A DNA stretch of 64,000 nucleotides from Clostridia bacterium (lineage in GTDB: Bacteria > Bacillota > Clostridia > RUG12999). Shown here piece after piece: positions 36,437-47,265 of the stretch. The notes under the pieces were generated by a model. That model did not search any database. It was given only the letters and a program-made list of their open reading frames with translations, and was not told where the DNA came from. How positions within the stretch are numbered: position 1 is the first letter of the stretch; every line of letters starts with the position of its first letter. Location: positions 20,611-84,610 of the forward strand of contig JAAWTG010000003.1 of NCBI GenBank assembly GCA_022801925.1, given 5' to 3'. A program made the translations under genes and the position numbers.

Positions 36437-36478
36437 AAAAAGCCCTGATATCATATTTTATGTGATATCAGGGCTTTG
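36437..36478. terminator. Bidirectional rho-independent terminator between the SPFH gene and the convergent EAL gene
   Basis: Perfect 14-bp hairpin AAGCCCTGATATCA/TGATATCAGGGCTT with T-rich flanks on both strands. Confidence 0.8.
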
Positions 36479-36622: not shown

Positions 36623-38527
36623 CTACTGCCTATGCTCTTTTAAAAATTTTTTCGCCTCCTTCAGCGGCAAAGCGCGGGAATAGTAAAATCCTTGAATGAG
36701 GTCGCAGTCGGTGCTTAGTACCATTTTATTATGTTCTTCCGTTTCGACACCCTCGCATAGAACGGTGATATTCATGCTGTGTGCCAAGCGAATAAGTCCG
36801 TCCAGCAACATTTTTCCGCGGCTGTCCATAGCGTTTAGAACAATGTCCCGTTCCACTTTCACGTAATCTATTGGATAATGATAGAGGTCAGATAGAGAGG
36901 AATAGCCGCTTCCGATATCATCCAAAGCGATTAGAAATCCAAGCGCCTTACATTTTTGCAGATTTTCCTGCAAAAGTTTCGGATTGTGTGACCGGGAATC
37001 TTCTGTAACCTCAATGATAAGGTGACTGTGGAGAAAAGCGTAACGTTCAGCAATTTCTTTGATATGGTTTGAAAAATCCGGTGCAGTAATGGAATAGCGG
37101 GTGAAATTACAGGATATAAACATATGACCCAAACCGTCCTGTTCCCATTTCGCCAGTTGTTTACATACCTGCGAAAAAATATAGTAATCGTGCGCTGTTA
37201 CAGCGCCGGTTTGGTTCATGAGTTCAATATATTTTGACGGCGGCAGCAATCCTTCTTGCGGATTTTGCCATCTGGATACCGCTTCTGCGCCGTATATTTC
37301 ACCTTTTCGGTTGACAATATATTGCAGATATAACTGAAATTCACCGTCCTTGATTGCCTGCGTGATACGGTGATGCAGGCGTTCATTCTGATGTGTTTCC
37401 GCGACGAGGGTTTGCGTGCTGAAAGAAAAGTTCAGTTTGTGACCCACTGCGTGGAGATATCCTTGTTTTGCGTTGTAGAAAGCGGATTCGCTGTCACAGT
37501 CCATGTTTTCTTCCAGCGCACAAACGCCGGCGGAAAAGAGATTCGTATATTCACTTTTGAATTGACTAAGATAGACGTCCAGTTCGTCCATGATACGCTT
37601 GATTCGTTCTTCTGCCTTTGGTTTATTGCTGCTTTGATAGAGAAAAGCAAACACGCCGGCATTTACCAATGCAAGATATTCTGCGGCGCCGGTTTTTTGA
37701 TTTAAAAATGCTGCCACATACTGCTGAACCGTTTGGGTTTCGCTTCCGCCGTACCGCCGGTTGAAGGTTTCTTCATCAAAGGAAATATAGGCAAGATAGT
37801 ATAGACTTTTGCTTTTATCGGAAATAAGATTGTCGTAGCAATAAATGTAATATTTATCATTTCCGATACCATATTGGGGATGTATCATCAGGTCGTCTTG
37901 CGCAGCTTTCCGCTTTCTCCCAAAATGGATTGCCAGCACCGTCGCTGTCAGCAAAACAACTGATAAAATACCACCTAAAACATATACAAACAATATATGG
38001 ATTCGGTTCACGCCGCCGTATTCCCTTGTATAGGACGAGAGAAACGTAAGTTTTTGTTCCGCAGATATCTCGGAAAACGCAGCGGAAACCTTTGATACGA
38101 TTTCTTCAGAGGCAATGTTAGAAAATGCAAAACAGACCCGCCGCTCTCTGCCGTCAATCGTAATGTTGGAAACGAACTGCGGCGTCTTTATATACTGCTC
38201 GTCAATCGCTTCCTCCAAATAGGCGGATATGATATCTGCCTGCCCGTTTTTTGCCAGACGCGCCTGTGCATGGGGACTGCTATCCTCCAAATACTGAAAA
38301 GTATAACCGGTTTTTTCAGAAATCACCGCATAAAGCTGCGGCATGAGACCGGCAAACTGTCCGCTCTTATCGTCATAATATTCTATCGGATACATATCGG
38401 TGTTTCCTGCCACATAAACGGTGGATTCTGAAGCAAACGAATGAACAGCAGCAAGAAACATAGAAAGCACGATAATACAGATATAGATACATATGGTTCT
38501 GACGAGCCCCATGTTACGGTTGTTCAT
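36623..38527 (-). CDS. Membrane-anchored sensor protein with a periplasmic domain, a degenerate GGDEF-like region and an EAL c-di-GMP phosphodiesterase domain
   Basis: C-terminal EAL motifs (LIALDDIGSGYSSL, DYVKVERDIV, QGFYYSRALP). Start chosen at MNNRNMG, which has a GGTGGA RBS. The longer ORF extension overlaps the upstream gene out of frame. Confidence 0.8.
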   Translation of the reverse strand: MNNRNMGLVRTICIYICIIVLSMFLAAVHSFASESTVYVAGNTDMYPIEYYDDKSGQFAGLMPQLYAVISEKTGYTFQYLEDSSPHAQARLAKNGQADIISAYLEEAIDEQYIKTPQFVSNITIDGRERRVCFAFSNIASEEIVSKVSAAFSEISAEQKLTFLSSYTREYGGVNRIHILFVYVLGGILSVVLLTATVLAIHFGRKRKAAQDDLMIHPQYGIGNDKYYIYCYDNLISDKSKSLYYLAYISFDEETFNRRYGGSETQTVQQYVAAFLNQKTGAAEYLALVNAGVFAFLYQSSNKPKAEERIKRIMDELDVYLSQFKSEYTNLFSAGVCALEENMDCDSESAFYNAKQGYLHAVGHKLNFSFSTQTLVAETHQNERLHHRITQAIKDGEFQLYLQYIVNRKGEIYGAEAVSRWQNPQEGLLPPSKYIELMNQTGAVTAHDYYIFSQVCKQLAKWEQDGLGHMFISCNFTRYSITAPDFSNHIKEIAERYAFLHSHLIIEVTEDSRSHNPKLLQENLQKCKALGFLIALDDIGSGYSSLSDLYHYPIDYVKVERDIVLNAMDSRGKMLLDGLIRLAHSMNITVLCEGVETEEHNKMVLSTDCDLIQGFYYSRALPLKEAKKFLKEHRQ

Positions 38528-39008
38528 TTTGACATCCACCCTTTTCAATCTTTTTTCGAGTGACCGGAGAAAAGTGTTGCGGTTCTGAAAGCACCTCACT
38601 TTTCTCAGACAAATTATCACCCAATATATCAAGTAATTGCTGAATGCTATCGCGTACATCATGGATACCGGCACTGCATTCACGGATTCGTTTTTGCAGT
38701 TCATGGGCGCATTCCAGATTTTTTTCCAGAAACTTTGCATTTTCAGCATTTGCTTTTTGCTTCAATTCTACTGCATACATTTTTGCATCGGTCAACACTT
38801 CCGCCACACGGTCGCGTTCTGCATAAAAAGCTGCGTTTTCCTGCTCAAGCCGTGCAATTTTTTTATTGAATTCCTGCACTGCCTGTTCGTGTGCTGTTAT
38901 GGTATCCATCATTTTCAGGGAAAATTTTTCGTTCATTTTTGCGATATATTCACATATATCGCTTTTTTTATATCCCCAAAATCCCTTTTTCAAACGTGTA
39001 ATATCCAT
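38514..39008 (-). CDS. DivIVA-domain coiled-coil protein (GpsB/DivIVA-like)
   Basis: N-terminal LKKGFWGYKKSDICEYIAKM matches the DivIVA N-terminal pattern (K.F..RGY...EV..FL..V), and the rest is coiled coil. RBS GGAAAGGAGA. Confidence 0.6.
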   Translation of the reverse strand: MDITRLKKGFWGYKKSDICEYIAKMNEKFSLKMMDTITAHEQAVQEFNKKIARLEQENAAFYAERDRVAEVLTDAKMYAVELKQKANAENAKFLEKNLECAHELQKRIRECSAGIHDVRDSIQQLLDILGDNLSEKSEVLSEPQHFSPVTRKKIEKGGCQNEQP

Positions 39009-39054: not shown

Positions 39055-40458
39055 TTAATGCAACTTGATTTTTTTGCGTTCAATACGACCCCATTGTGTT
39101 TTCTTTTTGCGATAGCCAATAAATGCGGTGGAGCGTACCCAAGCAAGGATAAACCGCAGACAGGTTAATTCAAAGAAACATAGTAAGACAGCCTTGACAC
39201 CGTCTATAAATGAAATTTTCATATCTGTTGTATAGAGGCGTGAGAAGAATGCCGAAAGCGAGAGGATGGAACTGAATCCGGCATATATCAGGAAAAACAG
39301 AATCATAAACGGAACATGCAATAAACCGGTTGCCCACGCCAAAAGCATAGTGATAACGCCAAATATTTCAATAAACGGTGAAAACAACTCATAAATCAAA
39401 AAGTATAAATAGGATATGAAACTGACTGCACCGAATTTGGGATTGGAAAACATTTTACGGTGCGCAAACATGCTTTGAAACAATCCCAAATGCCATCTTT
39501 TACGCTGGCGGCACAAATCACGCAAGTTTTCGGGTACTTGTGTCCAGCAGATGGCATCGCTGGCATATCGAATACTGTAGTTGATATGGTTCATGGTACA
39601 ATATTCATGCAACTTGACCACCAATTCCATATCCTCGCCGATTGTTTCATTGCTATAACCGCCCGCCGCTATGACTGTCTCTTTTTTGAACAGTCCGAAC
39701 GCACCGGAAATGATAAGAGAACCGTTGAATTTATCAAACAGAATTCTGGACGCCAAAAAAGAACGGGCATATTCTAAAACTTGCATACAAGCCAAGATAT
39801 TACGCGGCATACTATATTTTTTGAGCCGTCCGTTTTCCAGTTCGACTGCATTGGAAATGCGCACCATACCGCCGACGGCAACCACATTATCATTTTCCAG
39901 AACAGGTTGTGCAATGCGGCGCAGGGAGTCATATTGCAGAAAAGAATCGGCGTCAATACAAATAAAATACGGAAATGTGGAGGCATTAATACCCATATTC
40001 AGCGCGTCTGCTTTTCCGCCGTTTCGTTTACGAATGAGCGTCAGCGGTACCTTTTGCAAGCGGGACTCATAGACAAATTCTTCCGGCTGACAGGGAAGTT
40101 GCCGGCGTATCGGACAGTGAACGGGGCGCATGTCAAACGCTTCAATTAACTTTTTGGACATATTGTCTGTGGAACCGTCGTCTACTACAATAATCTCATA
40201 GGAGCGATATTCAAGCTGCAAAAGAGATTTGACGTTTTCCACCACAGTAATTTCTTCATTATAGGCAGGTACGATAATGGTAATCGGAACATAATAGTCC
40301 TGCGGGAGAATGTTTTTCATCAACTCACGCCGACGGAGTTTATACAGTTCAAGAGAGCCGACAACAAGCGAGATAAAAAGGAAGGTTGAATATCCAATGA
40401 GATAGGCGATAAAGAAATAGCCGGTCCAATCCAAGAATACTTTAAGCGTGTCTAACAT
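39055..40458 (-). CDS. Processive family-2 glycosyltransferase / polysaccharide synthase (PgaC/IcaA/NodC/HasA-like)
   Basis: N-terminal TM pair, DDGSTDN, DAD, QRKRW (QxxRW) motif, and 3-4 C-terminal TM helices. The start overlaps the upstream gene's stop (ATGTTAG). Confidence 0.85.
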   Translation of the reverse strand: MLDTLKVFLDWTGYFFIAYLIGYSTFLFISLVVGSLELYKLRRRELMKNILPQDYYVPITIIVPAYNEEITVVENVKSLLQLEYRSYEIIVVDDGSTDNMSKKLIEAFDMRPVHCPIRRQLPCQPEEFVYESRLQKVPLTLIRKRNGGKADALNMGINASTFPYFICIDADSFLQYDSLRRIAQPVLENDNVVAVGGMVRISNAVELENGRLKKYSMPRNILACMQVLEYARSFLASRILFDKFNGSLIISGAFGLFKKETVIAAGGYSNETIGEDMELVVKLHEYCTMNHINYSIRYASDAICWTQVPENLRDLCRQRKRWHLGLFQSMFAHRKMFSNPKFGAVSFISYLYFLIYELFSPFIEIFGVITMLLAWATGLLHVPFMILFFLIYAGFSSILSLSAFFSRLYTTDMKISFIDGVKAVLLCFFELTCLRFILAWVRSTAFIGYRKKKTQWGRIERKKIKLH

Positions 40459-41570
40459 ATGGATGCATCCTCCTTTTCTGCGCGTATCATATCACGAACA
40501 TCAAAATGGTACCGGAGAATTTCGGAGGCGTAGCGGTCATGTCCTTCCAAAACATCAATCAAATCCAGATAAGTCAATCCCAGCCGTTCAAGACTTTGCG
40601 CGGAATTGAACCGGATATGCCAGTTGCGGTGATGTAAATTTGATTTTAAAATTTCCACTGTTTTCTCTGCAGGGTAGGAAGCCAAAACAGAAGATGCTAT
40701 AGCGGCATATTCCCAGCGCATATCGGTTCTGCTGTTCGCATAAAGCAATAAATATTCATATGCCGGTTCATAGCGGTATTTACCGAAATAGCGAATACAG
40801 GCAAACCGGAGTTCATCGTCCTGCGATGTATCCTTCATAAGCCGCAGGATATCTTCGCAATGGTCTCCTGAGCTAAAGCGGAAATAGTTCAGCAGCGTGA
40901 TTTGCATCTTACGCGAGAAATCCTCAAATGTTTCCCAAAGTGCAGCGTTGAGTCGTTGCGTATTACCTGCGAAATTTAATAATCCATCCGCCAACAGTTT
41001 GCTATGATAGACTTTATTTTCATTGTCTATGATTTTTAATGCTTTTACAATGCAAGAAGCGTCTCTGGTAGTATAGAGCGCCTGCATAGCGTTTTCCCTG
41101 CAATAGATGCTCGGTTCATGGAGAAGCCGGAACAACATATCAATCATAGCGTCAAACGGACGGTCTGCCAAAATTCTATATTTTTTGATGATATATGGGA
41201 AATATGCCGCTTCCATAGAATCTTTTTTGCAATATTCGATAGAAAGAGATACAAACACACTGCCAATGGAATAGAGATATTTTCGGACAAGCATTGGATT
41301 TTCAAGATGTTTTTTTTCAAGCGCTGCATCAAAAGCACGCATGTTGCTGATGCGTTTGAGTTTTCCGGAAAGATAGTTTTTGTGTGCGCTGTGCACAGCA
41401 CTGTGCGTTTCCAGCCATATCAGTTCACTGCGGATCCTGTCCTCAAAACCATTGCTGACCCGAAGAATCCTTTTGTCCCTGCGGCGGGAGAGGAATGCAC
41501 TGATGATATTAAATAAAATCATGCCAACGCATATGACAAGATAGACATAAATCATTTTTTCTATGTTCAT
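40452..41570 (-). CDS. Hypothetical membrane-anchored alpha-helical repeat protein (HEAT/TPR-like), unknown function
   Basis: Single N-terminal TM helix followed by about 330 aa of predicted helical repeats. RBS GAAAGGG before MNIEKM. Translationally coupled to the GT2 gene. Confidence 0.5.
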   Translation of the reverse strand: MNIEKMIYVYLVICVGMILFNIISAFLSRRRDKRILRVSNGFEDRIRSELIWLETHSAVHSAHKNYLSGKLKRISNMRAFDAALEKKHLENPMLVRKYLYSIGSVFVSLSIEYCKKDSMEAAYFPYIIKKYRILADRPFDAMIDMLFRLLHEPSIYCRENAMQALYTTRDASCIVKALKIIDNENKVYHSKLLADGLLNFAGNTQRLNAALWETFEDFSRKMQITLLNYFRFSSGDHCEDILRLMKDTSQDDELRFACIRYFGKYRYEPAYEYLLLYANSRTDMRWEYAAIASSVLASYPAEKTVEILKSNLHHRNWHIRFNSAQSLERLGLTYLDLIDVLEGHDRYASEILRYHFDVRDMIRAEKEDASIC

Positions 41571-41593
41571 TGTGAGAACCCTTTCTTTTGGTG

Positions 41594-41660
41594 AGACAAA
41601 CAAAAGTCGAATCTCATGCGGTCACTGCATGGCGCAACCATATTCGACTTTCGTTTGCCT
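41594..41660 (-). repeat. Intra-operon hairpin / short repeat copy (AAAGTCGAAT...ATTCGACTTT followed by a T-rich run), between the glycoside-hydrolase and helical-repeat genes
   Basis: 10-bp stem with a nested CATGC..GCATG stem. On the minus strand it is followed by TTTTGTTTGTCTC. The 27-nt 3' half recurs at 47497-47525 and a variant at 6017-6037. Confidence 0.45.
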
Positions 41661-41672
41661 ATCCGCGTACTG

Positions 41673-43844
41673 CTATGACCATAATTGTTGCAGCATATAA
41701 TAGGAACTTTTCAGGCGTTCATGATAGCTTATCTGGTTGCCCCAGCCTTTCAGTTTGAAAGAGGAGAACGGTATCCGACCGCCGGAATTACCATCTGTCA
41801 GTGCGAAATACAGTTCATTGATTTTGATATAGTCTATACCGTAGTTGCCGCTGTAATAATCATCATGAATCATCATACGAGACGGATCGGAGAAATTCAA
41901 AAGCTGCCACGGCAGTTTCAGTTCAATATAGTCTCCACTGCAGATATAGTCGGCGAGAGAGTCAAACGCCGGACTAGACGGATTGGCGTTGCCATATTTG
42001 AGTTTTCCGGTCTCAAAGACCTCTGAGTTTGCCAAATTATCGTTATAGAGAAGTACCGTAGCGGTTTGCAGAATCATCTGAATCGGCAGGAAACGTGGCG
42101 AGTCAATATCAGGTATGTTGCTTGCGATATAAGTATCAAAATCATAAGCTTGCAGTGCATAGGTTGAACGCAGCGATTCATAACGTTCCTGCACCAAAAC
42201 ACGGCTGTTTTCTCTGCCGTGCAGCACAATTAAAAAATCTGCTGCACGGTCTAATAAAAGATTTTGTTCCTTGCAATAAAGGCTGCCGCTTTTGGGCGTG
42301 ATATCCAAAGGAATATAAAGCGTATCGGTTTCGAGGTTGAGGTTCGGTTTGTGAATCAGGAAATAGAGGAACCGCTCATCATATTTTACAGAAAGGGACA
42401 TGCCGCCGTTTTGGACGACCAAATCCGATTCTGTCCATTCAGAAATATCTCCGTCCACATAGCAAACAGATTTTTCGGCGCCAGGGTCAAAGGATAATAA
42501 GCCAAAATATTGCTCGTTGGTCTGATAGTCCGACCAATAGGGCGTTCTTGTCAAATCCACTGCATACATCGTATTCCAGGTGCGTTTGAACCATTCATCC
42601 TGCCACGAAAATACACAGCAGCCGGCACAACCTGCCGCCATAATATCCTCATAACAGTCGATAAGCGCTTGACCCTGTTCCTGTTCGGACATGTTGCCCT
42701 GATTTCTTCCGGTGTTTGCATCCCTTTGCGCCATTCCGCGTCCGGTGGAAACGCCGAACTCCGAAATAACCACGGGCATGGTATGATGGGTTGTGAGCAT
42801 GGCAAGATAGGCGCGGTAGGTGCTGAGTTGCCCTTTTGCATTGATATATGCCGATTTATCTGCGATTCCAAACGGTGACCAATCGTCAATATAGGTGAGG
42901 TAGTCGGGATAATAGGGATATACATGGTAGGAGGCAAATTGTCCGGCAAGAAATGTGTCATAGGTTTTAATATGTTCCGCATTCACATAGGCACATTTCA
43001 TAAAGAAATTTTTGATTCGTTCAGGATATTCAAAAGGATCAGTGGTCGGCCAGTTGGAAAAGGCAATGAGTTTTTGCGTTTTATAGCGGCAAGATTCATA
43101 TTCAACCACTTTGTCGCCGACTTTACAAAGCAGCGTTTCAAAGGGAGAGGCGTCCTGCGTGGTATACATATATTTCCCTTGATAAGAGGTATAACCGTCT
43201 TTGCCCGCGTAAAGATCGTCTGTATAAGCAACCGTAAGGTCTTCCCACTCCACGCCCAAAATATAACCGATGACCCAAGAAGAGACGTCTTTTAGATAAC
43301 TGCCGGAACCGGCGCTTGATACACTATTCAGCGCAATTTTTTTATTGCCGTGTACGGCATCCAGCATAGTTTTGCAATCATTTAAAAAAGTATCATAAAA
43401 TTCCTTACTATAGGCATCGCGGTGGGAATTTTGTATGTAGTCGTTGACCCATACGCCGTGAATCAAATAGAGTGGGTCAGGATTGTTTTTATTATATTCG
43501 TAAAACGCCTTGTAAAAAACGTCCTGTTGAATGGTATAGATACGAATCGTGTTGGCGCCCATTTCTTTGATATATTGAAACCAGCGAAGATAGGTTTCTT
43601 TGTCGATTGCAAAATCGGTAGACCATGCGCCCGGCGCGCCGGAGCCAAGATTCACACCACGAATCTCAAAGGGTTCATACCCGTTTCCCTTGTCCATATA
43701 TATTTTATCGCCATCTGTTTTGACAAAGGTGGTAACTGCTTTGGCAGGCTGAAAATCAATATACCATCCGAGCCGGAAATAAATGGCGTCATAGACCAGA
43801 GCCAATGCTACAACAGATGACAAAATGATTAAAAACTTTTTCAT
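41673..43844 (-). CDS. Secreted glycoside hydrolase-like protein (TIM-barrel clan GH-A type, candidate exopolysaccharide hydrolase)
   Basis: Signal/anchor sequence, GVNLG...IKEMGANTIRIY, and a candidate nucleophile motif VVISEFG. 723 aa. Confidence 0.5.
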   Translation of the reverse strand: MKKFLIILSSVVALALVYDAIYFRLGWYIDFQPAKAVTTFVKTDGDKIYMDKGNGYEPFEIRGVNLGSGAPGAWSTDFAIDKETYLRWFQYIKEMGANTIRIYTIQQDVFYKAFYEYNKNNPDPLYLIHGVWVNDYIQNSHRDAYSKEFYDTFLNDCKTMLDAVHGNKKIALNSVSSAGSGSYLKDVSSWVIGYILGVEWEDLTVAYTDDLYAGKDGYTSYQGKYMYTTQDASPFETLLCKVGDKVVEYESCRYKTQKLIAFSNWPTTDPFEYPERIKNFFMKCAYVNAEHIKTYDTFLAGQFASYHVYPYYPDYLTYIDDWSPFGIADKSAYINAKGQLSTYRAYLAMLTTHHTMPVVISEFGVSTGRGMAQRDANTGRNQGNMSEQEQGQALIDCYEDIMAAGCAGCCVFSWQDEWFKRTWNTMYAVDLTRTPYWSDYQTNEQYFGLLSFDPGAEKSVCYVDGDISEWTESDLVVQNGGMSLSVKYDERFLYFLIHKPNLNLETDTLYIPLDITPKSGSLYCKEQNLLLDRAADFLIVLHGRENSRVLVQERYESLRSTYALQAYDFDTYIASNIPDIDSPRFLPIQMILQTATVLLYNDNLANSEVFETGKLKYGNANPSSPAFDSLADYICSGDYIELKLPWQLLNFSDPSRMMIHDDYYSGNYGIDYIKINELYFALTDGNSGGRIPFSSFKLKGWGNQISYHERLKSSYYMLQQLWS

Positions 43845-43865
43845 GAATCCTCCTAATGAAACTAC

Positions 43866-45341
43866 TTAGTTTGCGTTTTCGTTAAACTTTTTCACCTTTG
43901 ACCCAGCGGAATATTGCGTGATAGATTCTATGTTTTCATCCAGCCAGGAGCCTCTATACGAAATAAACCACTTGAGCTGCGCAAGACTTTCTTCATAGGA
44001 ACGTGGATTGCGTTCGATAGGTTTTAGCAAATCATGACTTTCTTCAAAGGAATACCCCCATTTTTCATAGTTTCGCGCTATCGCGGCACCTAAATACTCT
44101 ACAGTGCTGTCAATATAACGGCAAAGATAGTCCTCGCTGAGATAGGTTTGACGAAGTTCATGATAACGCTTGACACAACGTTTTGTAAAGTTTTCATCTT
44201 TTGTCAGCATAAAGTACCACAAACAATTTTGAAGTTCAAAATGTCCGGGCTGCATCATAGATTGCTGATAGTTGTCACAGGCAGAGTTAAAATCCCAAAT
44301 ACACATGCGGAACTTGCCGTCGATATCTTTATACATATAAGTGGATAACCAGCCGGCGTCGTAGTTACAGGTAAACTCATTTATGAGAAGATAGTCTACA
44401 AAAGAATCTACATCAATCAATTTTTCATACCCATATTGGTTATTGTCGTAATCATAGGAATAGAGTGATTTTTCAAAAGCGGAAAAATCTTGTTTGATTC
44501 CTTCCAATATTTTGGGCGTTAGATTGGGAGCGCCGGGATATACAATTTCCAATTTCAGATTTGTGCGGAGCGTATAGGTGGTAAAACTTTTCAGATGGTT
44601 CTGTTCCTCGTTGTCCGGACGGTCAAGTAACAATACATAGCCGGTAAAGGTATTATCTTTTGCATCGACAGTCAGATTTAGGCGACTTCCGTTTTTGCCT
44701 GCCGTAATGTTTTCAACCAATACATAAACGCCCATATATTCACCATCAAGGAGCAATTCACAAAAGCGTACATTGGGAGCGTAGTCCATAATCTCGCCGG
44801 CAATATTATACCACATATAATTACGAAGCAGTGTCTTGTCCAAAATCGGACCGTGCAGCACCCATTCATGATGGGCGGTCATTCCGATTAGACTTTGTGG
44901 ATTGTTTCCTCCTTTTTCATCAATCAGATTGATGCGATAGCCCAATTTATCATAGGTACGCGAGGAATTGCCGCGTACATGAATGGATATATCGCTGGTA
45001 ACAGCAGGAACATCAGTGGGATGGTTGTTGGTTGTTTTATTATCAAACACCGACAGCTTGGCACGGATTCGGTCGCTACCGTCAGCCGCGGTTGTATATC
45101 CGGTCGTTTTACCTTCTTCCACGATTGCCCTTCCGGGTATTTCCACACCGCCTGTATGAATGGTTATCAACGGTAAATGTGTGCAGAAGGTATTGTCCGT
45201 ATGGGGGCATGGTTGTTTCGGCTCTGCCTCCAAATGTTGATGATAGCGTCCGGTATCCGCAGTCAATAAAAGAGGCAAATTTATCGCAGAAATGAGCAGC
45301 ATGAGTGCACAGGCAATGATACCCCAAACTTTGTATTTCAT
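43866..45341 (-). CDS. CotH-family protein (atypical kinase fold), secreted or membrane-anchored
   Basis: N-terminal hydrophobic segment. 491 aa with CotH-like conserved blocks (RGNSSRTYDKLGYRINL, HEWVLHGP, YVLVENI). Sits in a CotH-DUF4956-VTC context. Confidence 0.6.
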   Translation of the reverse strand: MKYKVWGIIACALMLLISAINLPLLLTADTGRYHQHLEAEPKQPCPHTDNTFCTHLPLITIHTGGVEIPGRAIVEEGKTTGYTTAADGSDRIRAKLSVFDNKTTNNHPTDVPAVTSDISIHVRGNSSRTYDKLGYRINLIDEKGGNNPQSLIGMTAHHEWVLHGPILDKTLLRNYMWYNIAGEIMDYAPNVRFCELLLDGEYMGVYVLVENITAGKNGSRLNLTVDAKDNTFTGYVLLLDRPDNEEQNHLKSFTTYTLRTNLKLEIVYPGAPNLTPKILEGIKQDFSAFEKSLYSYDYDNNQYGYEKLIDVDSFVDYLLINEFTCNYDAGWLSTYMYKDIDGKFRMCIWDFNSACDNYQQSMMQPGHFELQNCLWYFMLTKDENFTKRCVKRYHELRQTYLSEDYLCRYIDSTVEYLGAAIARNYEKWGYSFEESHDLLKPIERNPRSYEESLAQLKWFISYRGSWLDENIESITQYSAGSKVKKFNENAN

Positions 45342-45375
45342 CTATTTACCTCCTGCATTGTTTTTTGAACATGGT

Positions 45376-46053
45376 TTAATTTGACACTTCATCGTTTTGC
45401 ATGACGATGTTTACATATTCGACATTTCCAAGCGCGTAGATACCGGCGGTGATATCGGGCGTTTGTTTTTCCGCTTTTTGCAGCATTTTTTGTGTTAGTT
45501 CGTAGATAAGTTCCACGGTGTCTTCTGTCGTGTTTTCCACGCGGAGAACCGCCTTTGTATGGAATATCTTATAGATTTGCGCTTTAATAGGCGCCTGTTT
45601 ACTACGCGCGGCACGCACGATAAGCAGCATTCTATGGTCGTTTTTAATGAAGCCAAGTACTAGAATCACAAAAAAGGTAACTGCACTTCCAATACCTGCC
45701 ACAAGATAATCGCCTACACCACAGCAGATACCGACAATGATAGTCCAAAAAATGTATACCGTATCCCGCGAATCTTTAATAGCAGTACGGAACCGGACAA
45801 TGGACAGCGCGCCAACCATTCCGAGCGACAATGCAATATTGTTGCCGATGACTGTCATAACAGTGCTTGTCAGCACTGTTAGAATCGTGAGAGAAGCATT
45901 AAATTTTTTACTATAGATAGTGCCGCGGTGAGATATGTAGTAGGAAATGAAGATAAACAATCCAAGTGCCGCCGCCGTCGCAATATTCATTAGAATTTGT
46001 TCAGCAGTCATGTCGCTGGGATTGGTAAATAGGTTATATATTTTTTCTTTCAT
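45376..46053 (-). CDS. DUF4956-family membrane protein
   Basis: Four TM helices followed by a soluble C-terminal domain. Typical genomic partner of VTC-domain and CotH proteins. Confidence 0.6.
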   Translation of the reverse strand: MKEKIYNLFTNPSDMTAEQILMNIATAAALGLFIFISYYISHRGTIYSKKFNASLTILTVLTSTVMTVIGNNIALSLGMVGALSIVRFRTAIKDSRDTVYIFWTIIVGICCGVGDYLVAGIGSAVTFFVILVLGFIKNDHRMLLIVRAARSKQAPIKAQIYKIFHTKAVLRVENTTEDTVELIYELTQKMLQKAEKQTPDITAGIYALGNVEYVNIVMQNDEVSN

Positions 46054-46067
46054 ATATTGATAACTCC

Positions 46068-46775
46068 TTATAATCTCGTTTGATACCCATTTTGGCGGGC
46101 AAGCACATATTTACTGACAGATAATTCGCTACGGTTCACGCTGTTTATCATACGGCGGATATAATCGAGCAGAAAGCCGTTGAATTTCACTTCCATAACC
46201 ACGTTAAATTTGTCCAGCACCGGATTCATATTAAGATATGGCGCAAACAAATCAAAATTGCTTTCCGTAGCCACAATATTGCTGTCAAAAGTAATACGGA
46301 TTTTATTCTCCTTTGCAATGAATGCTTTGCGGTGATATTGTACGATTGTTTTAGGACGGTAACAGCGAGTATTCATGAGCGCATAACATTCGGCTGCAAA
46401 GCGCTCTTTGTAATGCAGAAGAGGGGAATAATCGCCTTTGGTAAGCGCTATGGCTTCTTCACGCGATATCTGCAAAGAACGCTTAAGTTGATACGCACCT
46501 TGTTTTTGTTTCATCTCAAGCATAGCAAAATGAGAATTTGAGTCATAAATACGCAGCCTGATTTTGCGCCTTGTTTCTATGCCGGAAATCTTTTCAAAAT
46601 AGTCTCTGTCATATATTGTATCAAAATATAGTGAGCGAATCACATATCCATGCGTTCCATTATGTATATCTTCTGACATTACTTGGCTTAACATGTGGCT
46701 CTTTTCGAGAAATTCATCAACGTTTATTAAGAACTTTTTTTCTTCTCTGAAAACTTTGTTCAATCCTACCATCAT
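46068..46775 (-). CDS. VTC-domain protein (polyphosphate-polymerase-like triphosphate tunnel fold)
   Basis: SLYFDT motif and about 235 aa, matching bacterial VTC-domain proteins. First gene after the riboswitch leader. The RBS AGAAGG abuts ATGATG, so the exact start is uncertain. Confidence 0.6.
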   Translation of the reverse strand: MMVGLNKVFREEKKFLINVDEFLEKSHMLSQVMSEDIHNGTHGYVIRSLYFDTIYDRDYFEKISGIETRRKIRLRIYDSNSHFAMLEMKQKQGAYQLKRSLQISREEAIALTKGDYSPLLHYKERFAAECYALMNTRCYRPKTIVQYHRKAFIAKENKIRITFDSNIVATESNFDLFAPYLNMNPVLDKFNVVMEVKFNGFLLDYIRRMINSVNRSELSVSKYVLARQNGYQTRL

Positions 46776-46781
46776 CCTTCT

Positions 46782-46822
46782 AAAAACAAAAAAACTGACT
46801 GCAATTTAAACTTGCAGTCAGT
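46782..46822 (-). terminator. Intrinsic terminator forming the expression platform of the leader riboswitch
   Basis: Perfect 11-bp stem ACTGACTGCAA/TTGCAGTCAGT with a 7-nt loop, followed by TTTTTTTGTTTTT, ending 6 nt before the RBS. Confidence 0.8.
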
Positions 46823-46829
46823 CAATCAT

Positions 46830-46904: not shown

Positions 46905-46933
46905 ATTGTACTATATTTAATGGGAGTTGTCAA
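46905..46933 (-). promoter_or_regulatory. Sigma-A promoter TTGACA-17-TACAAT driving the riboswitch leader and the VTC-to-EAL operon
   Basis: Consensus -35, a 17-nt spacer and a near-consensus -10 read on the minus strand. Confidence 0.65.
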
Positions 46934-47040: not shown

Positions 47041-47090
47041 TTTTAAAAGCAAAATAAACCCCCTGCAACCACTATGGTTACAGGGGGTTT
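47041..47090 (-). terminator. Rho-independent terminator downstream of tRNA-fMet
   Basis: AAACCCCCTG...CAGGGGGTTT 10-bp stem followed by ATTTTGCTTTT on the minus strand. Confidence 0.8.
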
Positions 47091-47093
47091 CAT

Positions 47094-47170
<77 letters not shown>

Positions 47171-47176
47171 ATATAT

Positions 47177-47265
47177 TGGTGCCGGAAACCGGAATCGAAC
47201 CGGTACGGGAGTTTCCTCCCACAGGATTTTAAGTCCTGGGCGTCTGCCAGTTCCGCCATTCCGGC
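47177..47265 (-). tRNA. tRNA-Leu (UAA)
   Basis: 89 nt with a long variable arm, anticodon loop CTTAAAA, a GTTCGATTC T-loop, and an encoded CCA end. Confidence 0.85.

Follow-up and report, generated by a model that had tools for sequence, protein, structure and literature searches.

What does a small coiled-coil gene do between a gene for a putative polysaccharide synthase and a gene for a cyclic di-GMP (c-di-GMP) phosphodiesterase? This question is raised by a stretch of 64,000 nucleotides (nt) from a Clostridia bacterium (GenBank assembly GCA_022801925.1, contig JAAWTG010000003.1, positions 20,611 to 84,610 of the forward strand), referred to here as the window. Coordinates are those of the window and all features lie on its minus strand unless stated otherwise. 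The small gene (38514-39008) encodes 164 amino acids (aa) and belongs to an operon which opens with a c-di-GMP-I riboswitch and closes with the phosphodiesterase gene. The interesting part of this locus is the conserved arrangement of riboswitch, synthase, DivIVA-like protein and phosphodiesterase, which suggests a module for matrix production that limits itself and may be spatially organized. In our reading, a DivIVA-family gene within a riboswitch operon would provide the scaffold of a feedback-controlled polysaccharide module; taken as a whole, this is a reading on which we are evenly divided.

How c-di-GMP signaling becomes locally specific is not settled, and for Gram-positive anaerobes there is hardly any knowledge of it. 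A DivIVA-type scaffold placed between synthase and phosphodiesterase, in an operon that c-di-GMP itself turns on, would be a compact module for both spatial and feedback control of the matrix. Furthermore, the locus would offer a functional handle on the uncharacterized VTC-DUF4956-CotH-HEAT-GT2 gene cluster (GT2, family-2 glycosyltransferase), a marker of necrotic-enteritis Clostridium perfringens (NELoc-2) which is widespread in gut Oscillospiraceae, Ruminococcus and Lachnospiraceae. Lastly, the analysis defines an unannotated DivIVA subfamily which comprises, at 50% identity, at least 182 clusters and whose members are labelled hypothetical by current pipelines.

The small gene and its protein family

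The small open reading frame (ORF) begins with MDITRLKKGFWGYKKSDICEYIAKM and is preceded by the ribosome-binding site AAGGAG, 7 nt 5′ of the ATG. Its 3′ end overlaps the start of the EAL gene by 14 nt (38514-38527), the two genes being read in different frames. The EAL gene starts at 38527 with MNNRNMG, 8 nt downstream of the ribosome-binding site GGTGGA, and ends at 36623, which gives a product of 634 aa. Both products are also given by independent gene calls on two near-identical public contigs. The small ORF, its overlap with the EAL gene, the EAL start with GGTGGA and the tight coupling of the two genes had been described in an earlier interpretation made from the letters of the DNA (the sequence-only reading), and we find them as it had reported.

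The same interpretation had treated the translational overlap as a meaningful feature, a view which we abandon. Among related loci (numbered with the prefix L), L011 has an overlap of 14 nt, L007 one of 4 nt and L024 one of 1 nt, and in L003, L005 and L010 a gap of 13-17 nt separates the two genes. In L013, the representative of the same species with a GT2 99% identical to that of the window, a run of seven adenines stands in place of six. The small protein is thereby shortened by 10 residues and ends 17 nt before the EAL start, and the overlap is gone. The difference (L013:11895-11935 versus window 38514-38545) reflects a genuine polymorphism of the homopolymer or else a mistake in assembly. 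A special meaning of the 14-nt overlap is thus rejected since its size varies among relatives, even within the species; it is ordinary operon packing.

The small ORF is a genuine gene and is conserved. Started from the single protein, a word-indexed homologue search returned only two relatives, and searches of NCBIfam and of PDB sequences returned coiled-coil noise only. When 1.84 billion representatives were scanned exhaustively with HMMER, 182 clusters emerged at E ≤ 1e-3, 30 of them at E ≤ 1e-10; nearly all members have 140-200 aa and align from residue 1. These 182 cluster-representative homologues, together with the conserved position between the GT2 and EAL genes, place the ORF beyond chance. 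The supposition of a chance open frame, which finds its sole support in a sub-threshold Pfam score, is refuted by this conservation. It also faces an invariant glycine within a near-invariant motif, a good ribosome-binding site and a confident structural model, and we grant it practically no credence.

The assignment of the protein to DivIVA, proposed in the sequence-only reading, has to be divided into two statements. Against the Pfam DivIVA family (PF05103), the window protein by itself scores 13.1 bits (E 0.095), below the cut-off of 28, and this match is no better than about a dozen generic coiled-coil matches. At the level of the family (alignment of 73 members), 59 of the 73 match Pfam DivIVA (E ≤ 0.01; best 1e-12) and some surpass its gathering score. 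In addition, hhalign of the family against four Pfam-certified DivIVA proteins gives a probability of 95% (E 2.6e-8) over a central LLDAxxYAxxL segment, and the family profile matches the structure of the DivIVA N-terminal domain (2wuj, residues 3-51, E 0.034). The hidden Markov model check thus turns out negative for the single protein and positive for its family. The small protein represents a divergent branch of the DivIVA family that had gone unannotated, and its membership is shown by transitive homology at the family level, not by the score of the window protein. In public sources, the protein is labelled hypothetical and no Pfam domain is recorded.

The family shares an N-terminal DivIVA-like motif, which in the window protein comprises residues 6-22 (LKKGFWGYKKSDICEYI; 38943-38993). 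In the alignment, G12 is invariant and flanked by F/W11 (71/73), F/L10 (63/73) and Y13 (68/73). Further conserved positions are V18 (72 of 73), K/R15 and Y21 (70 each) and K/R7 (65). The window sequence F10-W11-G12-Y13...I18..Y21-I22 displays the hydrophobic loop residue, the Gly-Tyr pair and the V..(F/Y)(L/I) pattern. We take F10-W11-G12-Y13 to be the counterpart of F17-R18-G19-Y20 in Bacillus subtilis DivIVA, a loop which reportedly inserts into the membrane according to the DivIVA structure of Oliva et al. 2010. The arginine at the tip of the DivIVA loop is replaced by an aromatic residue in the small protein, and lysines flank the loop.

The protein is predicted to be cytoplasmic and almost wholly helical. 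An AlphaFold2 monomer model based on the family alignment (mean predicted local distance difference test score 88.5) shows a helix at residues 3-11, a loop at 12-14 and a long helix at 15-141. This modelled succession of short helix, loop and long helix is the topology of the DivIVA N-terminal domain.

Two side observations concern the family. First, a C-terminal motif N-(M/L)-x-L-F-x-R-K, possibly a docking peptide, ends a subgroup of the small proteins (11 of 73 aligned members, with carriers in L003, L007, L010, L012, L024, L025, L027, L053 and L074); the window protein does not have it. Second, two tandem paralogues of the small protein lie beside a nucleotidyltransferase gene at L009:8333-9561. 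They are not part of a GT2/EAL operon, so that at least one other context exists for the family.

The riboswitch and the phosphodiesterase

The operon extends from 46933 to 36439. Its order is VTC, DUF4956, CotH, a weakly glycoside hydrolase (GH)-like protein, HEAT, GT2, the DivIVA-like protein and the EAL protein, so that the small gene is the seventh and the EAL gene the eighth; the intergenic gaps range from -14 to about 70 nt. The sequence-only reading had not recognized that the pair closes this operon of eight genes under a riboswitch. A c-di-GMP-I (GEMM-I) aptamer at 46810-46896 matches Rfam RF01051 over its full length (model positions 1-87 of 87) with 71.1 bits (E 6e-12), well above the gathering score of 35, and ends 35 nt upstream of the VTC start. 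In 19 related loci, a riboswitch of this class occupies the corresponding position. A sigma-70-like promoter (TTGACA-17-TACAAT, 46905-46933) is assigned from its consensus match only (11 of 12 positions) and is credible because of its position just upstream of the riboswitch. Just upstream of this promoter are genes for tRNA-Met (CAT) and tRNA-Leu (TAA) at 47094-47265, with their own terminator at 47056-47090.

The expression platform is an intrinsic terminator at 46785-46823, with a 12-bp stem followed by U7, which competes with the aptamer. Its 5′ arm (46823-46812) overlaps the 3′ strand of aptamer helix P2 (46827-46816), the two folds being mutually exclusive, and the minimum-energy fold of the unliganded leader includes the terminator. 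Because of this overlap, ligand binding should prevent termination, and the riboswitch is predicted to be an ON switch.

The gene at the other end of the operon (36623-38527) encodes a protein of 634 aa, best read as a membrane sensor phosphodiesterase whose activity is predicted. It comprises a signal or anchor segment, an SBP_bac_3-like domain, a transmembrane helix with a basic stretch behind it, a degenerate GGDEF region and an EAL domain. The EAL domain (residues 387-618; 36674-37369) scores 194 bits against a Pfam threshold of 31.3. All the catalytic and metal-binding residues are present (E415, R419, N474, E506, E509, D536, D537, K557, E592, E595 and Q612), with a spacing that we take to agree with the RocR numbering. 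They are invariant in six of six orthologues and kept in 26-28 of 28. Loop 6 reads DDIGSGYSS in the window and DDFGEGFTS in orthologues against a canonical DFG(T/A)GYSS, which amounts to conservative changes. The best solved match of the protein is DosP, an enzyme with an active EAL domain (E 7e-38). The sequence-only reading had envisaged a mere c-di-GMP receptor in case the catalytic residues were lacking; with the full set present, this alternative is not called for. Since a phosphodiesterase is encoded in an operon under a c-di-GMP-I riboswitch, it is likely to be a feedback element.

The GGDEF region (residues 249-353; 37469-37783) scores 21.4 bits against a threshold of 23.8, and NAGVF replaces the GG[DE]EF signature. 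The signature is found in none of the 28 orthologues; the motif is degenerate in all 28. The arginine of the RxxD motif of the inhibitory site (I-site) is likewise absent in all of them, the window protein reading GAAE and the orthologues GDAD, EDSD and similar. A role of the degenerate region as an I-site receptor was rejected on the absence of this arginine. The region, as far as its motifs indicate, is neither a cyclase nor a canonical allosteric site for c-di-GMP. From the earlier suggestion of a degenerate GGDEF-like region acting as an allosteric site, the degenerate region itself is retained and the canonical allosteric site is not.

Outside the membrane, the input would be received by a weakly matching SBP_bac_3-like domain (residues 39-102; 38222-38413; 22.3 bits against 26.4), and similarly weak SBP_bac_3 matches occur in the orthologues. 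A signal peptide is present in the clade of the window (window 38438-38527). Most orthologous sensor phosphodiesterases begin directly with the SBP-like domain (about 170 aa) and have no room for a signal peptide (L003:10534-12351, L005:10554-12368, L010:4736-6532, L012:9531-11342 and others).

Distribution and candidate roles of the small protein

Eight of nine family members looked up lie between a GT2 gene (467 aa) and a GGDEF-EAL gene of the same operon, and this position is kept despite a divergence of the small protein to 28% identity. The ninth is one of the two tandem paralogues of L009. This observation bears on the possibility that the small gene is an ordinary division paralogue of DivIVA or GpsB which is located here by chance and has no tie to the operon. 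Such paralogues are common in Bacillota, and P0115 in L009 indeed lies in an unrelated context, beside a second paralogue and the nucleotidyltransferase gene. However, the position between GT2 and EAL genes is conserved at this degree of divergence, the small gene has no promoter or terminator of its own and it is co-distributed with the riboswitch. A chance location is very improbable in our view.

This co-distribution emerged from a GT2-anchored scan with one genome per species, which gave 31 loci with the six-gene core (VTC to GT2). They come from metagenome-assembled genomes labelled Oscillospiraceae, Ruminococcus, Lachnospiraceae, Flavonifractor, Intestinimonas, Christensenella and Syntrophomonas. 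Downstream of GT2, 13 of the 31 carry the small gene and the EAL gene, 12 carry the EAL gene only, one (L035) carries a 63-aa remnant of the small gene and no EAL gene, four have neither and one contig ends at GT2. The riboswitch was counted in loci with upstream sequence, four small-gene loci from the protein look-ups being added. It is present in all 14 loci with the small gene, in five of nine with the EAL gene only and in none of five without the EAL gene. No riboswitch of another class, such as c-di-GMP-II, was found in the riboswitch-negative loci. The nesting is consistent: core, then core with EAL gene, then with riboswitch, then with small gene. This nested distribution places the small gene in the c-di-GMP layer of the system and implies that it can be dispensed with, as an accessory of the c-di-GMP-wired version rather than an essential subunit. 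Carriers of the small gene are spread over two large clades of the GT2 tree and have sister lineages without it (e.g. L016), which suggests that the gene is ancestral and was repeatedly lost.

The same counts bear on the proposal that the protein is a cytoplasmic subunit of the synthase, which would organize GT2 and HEAT into arrays or couple them to the wall or to the division apparatus, independently of the phosphodiesterase. The small gene lies directly downstream of GT2 in every case. BcsQ, which organizes the cellulose synthase of Escherichia coli, provides one precedent for a cytoskeletal-type protein in this role at a GT2 synthase. The other is the link of DivIVA with the glucan synthase CslA (PMC13432765). 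On the other side, the core operon, including NELoc-2 of C. perfringens (PMC2879425), exists without the small gene. The gene is also absent from the five loci without EAL gene and riboswitch, bar the 63-aa remnant, and this absence ties it to the signaling layer rather than to the synthase. We regard a pure synthase subunit as quite unlikely.

Could the small protein then regulate the phosphodiesterase directly? It might act through the GGDEF-EAL module, by favoring the active dimer or by inhibition, and have no positioning role. Its gene always lies immediately upstream of the EAL gene and is often translationally coupled to it. Moreover, it is confined to riboswitch-bearing loci, and every full-length copy in the core loci is accompanied by an EAL gene; the sole exception is the truncated remnant of L035. 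Yet twelve orthologous EAL proteins do without the small protein, no pattern of EAL residues divides the two groups and the conserved lysine-flanked aromatic loop resembles a membrane-binding feature more than an enzyme-binding one. Direct regulation is thus an unlikely explanation, if one to be kept in mind.

The scaffold reading, which we prefer, can be laid out as a sequence of events. At high c-di-GMP, the aptamer would be stabilized and the 5′ arm of the terminator sequestered, allowing transcription through the operon. The first six products would build a secreted polysaccharide and modify it. The EAL protein, encoded on the transcript that they share, would hydrolyze c-di-GMP and so exert negative feedback, its activity possibly being gated by the extracytoplasmic SBP-like domain. 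The DivIVA-like protein would bind the inner leaflet of the membrane by its lysine-flanked Phe-Trp-Gly-Tyr loop and oligomerize by its helix of about 125 residues. It could then serve as a scaffold for the clustering or positioning of the synthase, of the phosphodiesterase or of both. Such a scaffolding or localizing role is put forward as plausible.

Several points weigh against this reading. The score of the window protein falls below the Pfam DivIVA cut-off, as described above, and a Foldseek search with the AlphaFold2 model found no match in the PDB, because a single long helix is uninformative. The acidic run which follows Gly-Tyr in DivIVA and GpsB is replaced by lysine and serine in the small protein, so any partner interface would differ from that of either. 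The longer family members contain only DivIVA or coiled-coil matches, and no domain fusion hints at a partner. Twelve of 25 EAL-bearing operons have no small gene, including that of L016, the nearest neighbor of the window; the small gene is therefore dispensable for both synthesis and phosphodiesterase. In the alignments of three proteins, columns were sought which separate loci with and without the small gene; GT2 and HEAT had none, and EAL had a single weak one. In addition, the counts of locus association are not phylogenetically independent, and the polarity of the riboswitch is a prediction from folds.

A more specific version holds that a dedicated DivIVA paralogue nucleates a polar or septal membrane patch in gut Clostridia, which holds the riboswitch-induced synthase and the sensor phosphodiesterase. 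The placement at a pole or a septum is a point which we purely infer, and this version is doubtful at present. If it were true, the operon would encode a spatially confined, self-limiting hub of c-di-GMP signaling and secretion, and its small protein would be the first of the DivIVA family recruited into the ‘local signaling’ of a second messenger.

Additional c-di-GMP enzymes, which are not in the window, accompany related operons. A second gene, encoding a dCache-GGDEF-EAL protein, follows many of them (L003:12408-14642, L012:11421-13655, L010:6615-8864, L053:13815-16055), and a GGDEF gene precedes some (L003:1-668, L012:1-989).

The six-gene core and known systems

The first three genes of the operon encode a VTC-domain protein of 235 aa (46068-46775; Pfam VTC 146 bits), a DUF4956 membrane protein of 225 aa (45376-46053; Pfam DUF4956 49.6 bits) and a CotH kinase-like protein of 491 aa (43866-45341; Pfam CotH 190.5 bits). 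The fourth product is a membrane-anchored protein of 723 aa (41673-43844) which has no assigned family and is weakly GH-like (Glyco_hydro_72 24.7 bits against 25.9; match to a GH2 catalytic domain, E 0.0013); its gene always adjoins the HEAT and GT2 genes. The HEAT-repeat protein (40452-41603; HEAT_2 40.1 bits) has 383 aa from a TTG start and 372 aa in public gene calls. The GT2 (39055-40458; 467 aa; Glycos_transf_2 87 bits) is processive and a putative polysaccharide synthase. It carries DAD and QRKRW motifs, matches BcsA and chitin synthase around QRKRW, has a basic C-terminal tail (GYRKKKTQWGRIERKKIKLH) and is 62-64% identical across distant loci. Against the poly-N-acetylglucosamine synthase model PgaC/IcaA (TIGR03937), it scores 147 bits, below the equivalog cut-off of 422. 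A strong bidirectional terminator hairpin, predicted at 36439-36477 and assigned to neither strand, closes the operon.

Some variants of the core shed light on the product and on the synthase unit. In a Massiliimalia locus (L003:1621-3063), a polysaccharide deacetylase gene stands between VTC and DUF4956, which hints that the polymer may contain N-acetylated sugars. In L042, L043 and L045, with GT2 39-41% identical, the 723-aa protein and GT2 are kept and VTC, DUF4956 and CotH are gone; HEAT is present in L042 and L043. This suggests that GT2 and the GH-like protein constitute the minimal synthase unit.

Literature searches on DivIVA with c-di-GMP and exopolysaccharide, and on riboswitches with CotH, turned up no dedicated DivIVA paralogue in a c-di-GMP or polysaccharide operon. 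Like B. subtilis DivIVA and Wag31 (PF05103), the small protein is predicted to have a short helix, a loop and a long coiled-coil helix. F-W-G-Y aligns with F17-R18-G19-Y20 and V..Y-I with V..F-L, and the central LLDAxxYAxxL is common to both. The small protein differs by the change of the tip arginine to Trp or Phe, by the exchange of the acidic run for Lys/Ser and by its score below the Pfam threshold. Its gene is located inside a polysaccharide/c-di-GMP operon, not in a division and cell-wall cluster. DivIVA itself oligomerizes and binds negatively curved membrane, gathering at poles or septa.

Local c-di-GMP modules at synthases include DgcC/PdeK at the cellulose synthase of E. coli, YdaK-YdaM-YdaN in B. 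subtilis and PssE in Listeria. In these systems, c-di-GMP acts post-translationally by way of PilZ or I-site receptors, and the Yda machinery of B. subtilis clusters at poles and septa. They have in common with the window operon that a GT2 synthase is encoded together with a c-di-GMP enzyme or receptor whose GGDEF is degenerate, a protein which in these systems acts at the synthase. In contrast, the window operon has no evident receptor domain and combines riboswitch control, a phosphodiesterase and a DivIVA-like protein. The phosphodiesterase itself resembles PdeA (CC3396) of Caulobacter and DosP of E. coli, in which a degenerate GGDEF precedes an EAL domain with the full catalytic set. Its GGDEF is far more eroded (NAGVF), which makes activation by GTP uncertain, and its input is the extracytoplasmic SBP_bac_3-like domain.

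The nearest relative of the core is NELoc-2, a locus of necrotic-enteritis strains of C. perfringens which remains functionally uncharacterized (PMC2879425). It comprises VTC, DUF4956 (annotated as tubulin/FtsZ-like), CotH, a hypothetical protein of 685 aa, a HEAT protein of 377 aa and a GT2 of 466 aa called ‘chitin synthase’ (PMC2879425), the same six genes as at 39055-46775 of the window, in the same order and of similar sizes. As published, NELoc-2 ends at GT2, and no DivIVA-like gene, EAL gene or riboswitch is reported (PMC2879425). The VTC, DUF4956 and CotH trio is also an accessory set (CotH, polyphosphate-polymerase and DUF4956 genes) of Gram-positive pel clusters, to which bifidobacteria add a diguanylate cyclase/phosphodiesterase gene (PMC7112168). 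The trio is thus attached to a synthase-dependent exopolysaccharide locus in both cases. The pel clusters encode PelF and PelG and no DivIVA-like gene is described there, whereas the window encodes a PgaC/BcsA-like GT2 with HEAT and GH-like proteins.

Finally, the closest functional parallel to the small protein comes from Streptomyces, where DivIVA has a functional link at hyphal tips with CslA, a GT2 glucan synthase on which a protein kinase also acts (PMC13432765). Both systems associate a DivIVA-type protein with a processive GT2, and a CotH kinase-like gene is present in the window operon. The DivIVA of Streptomyces is an essential housekeeping protein encoded elsewhere in the genome; its putative counterpart in this Clostridia bacterium is a small, dedicated paralogue, encoded beside the synthase and linked to c-di-GMP.

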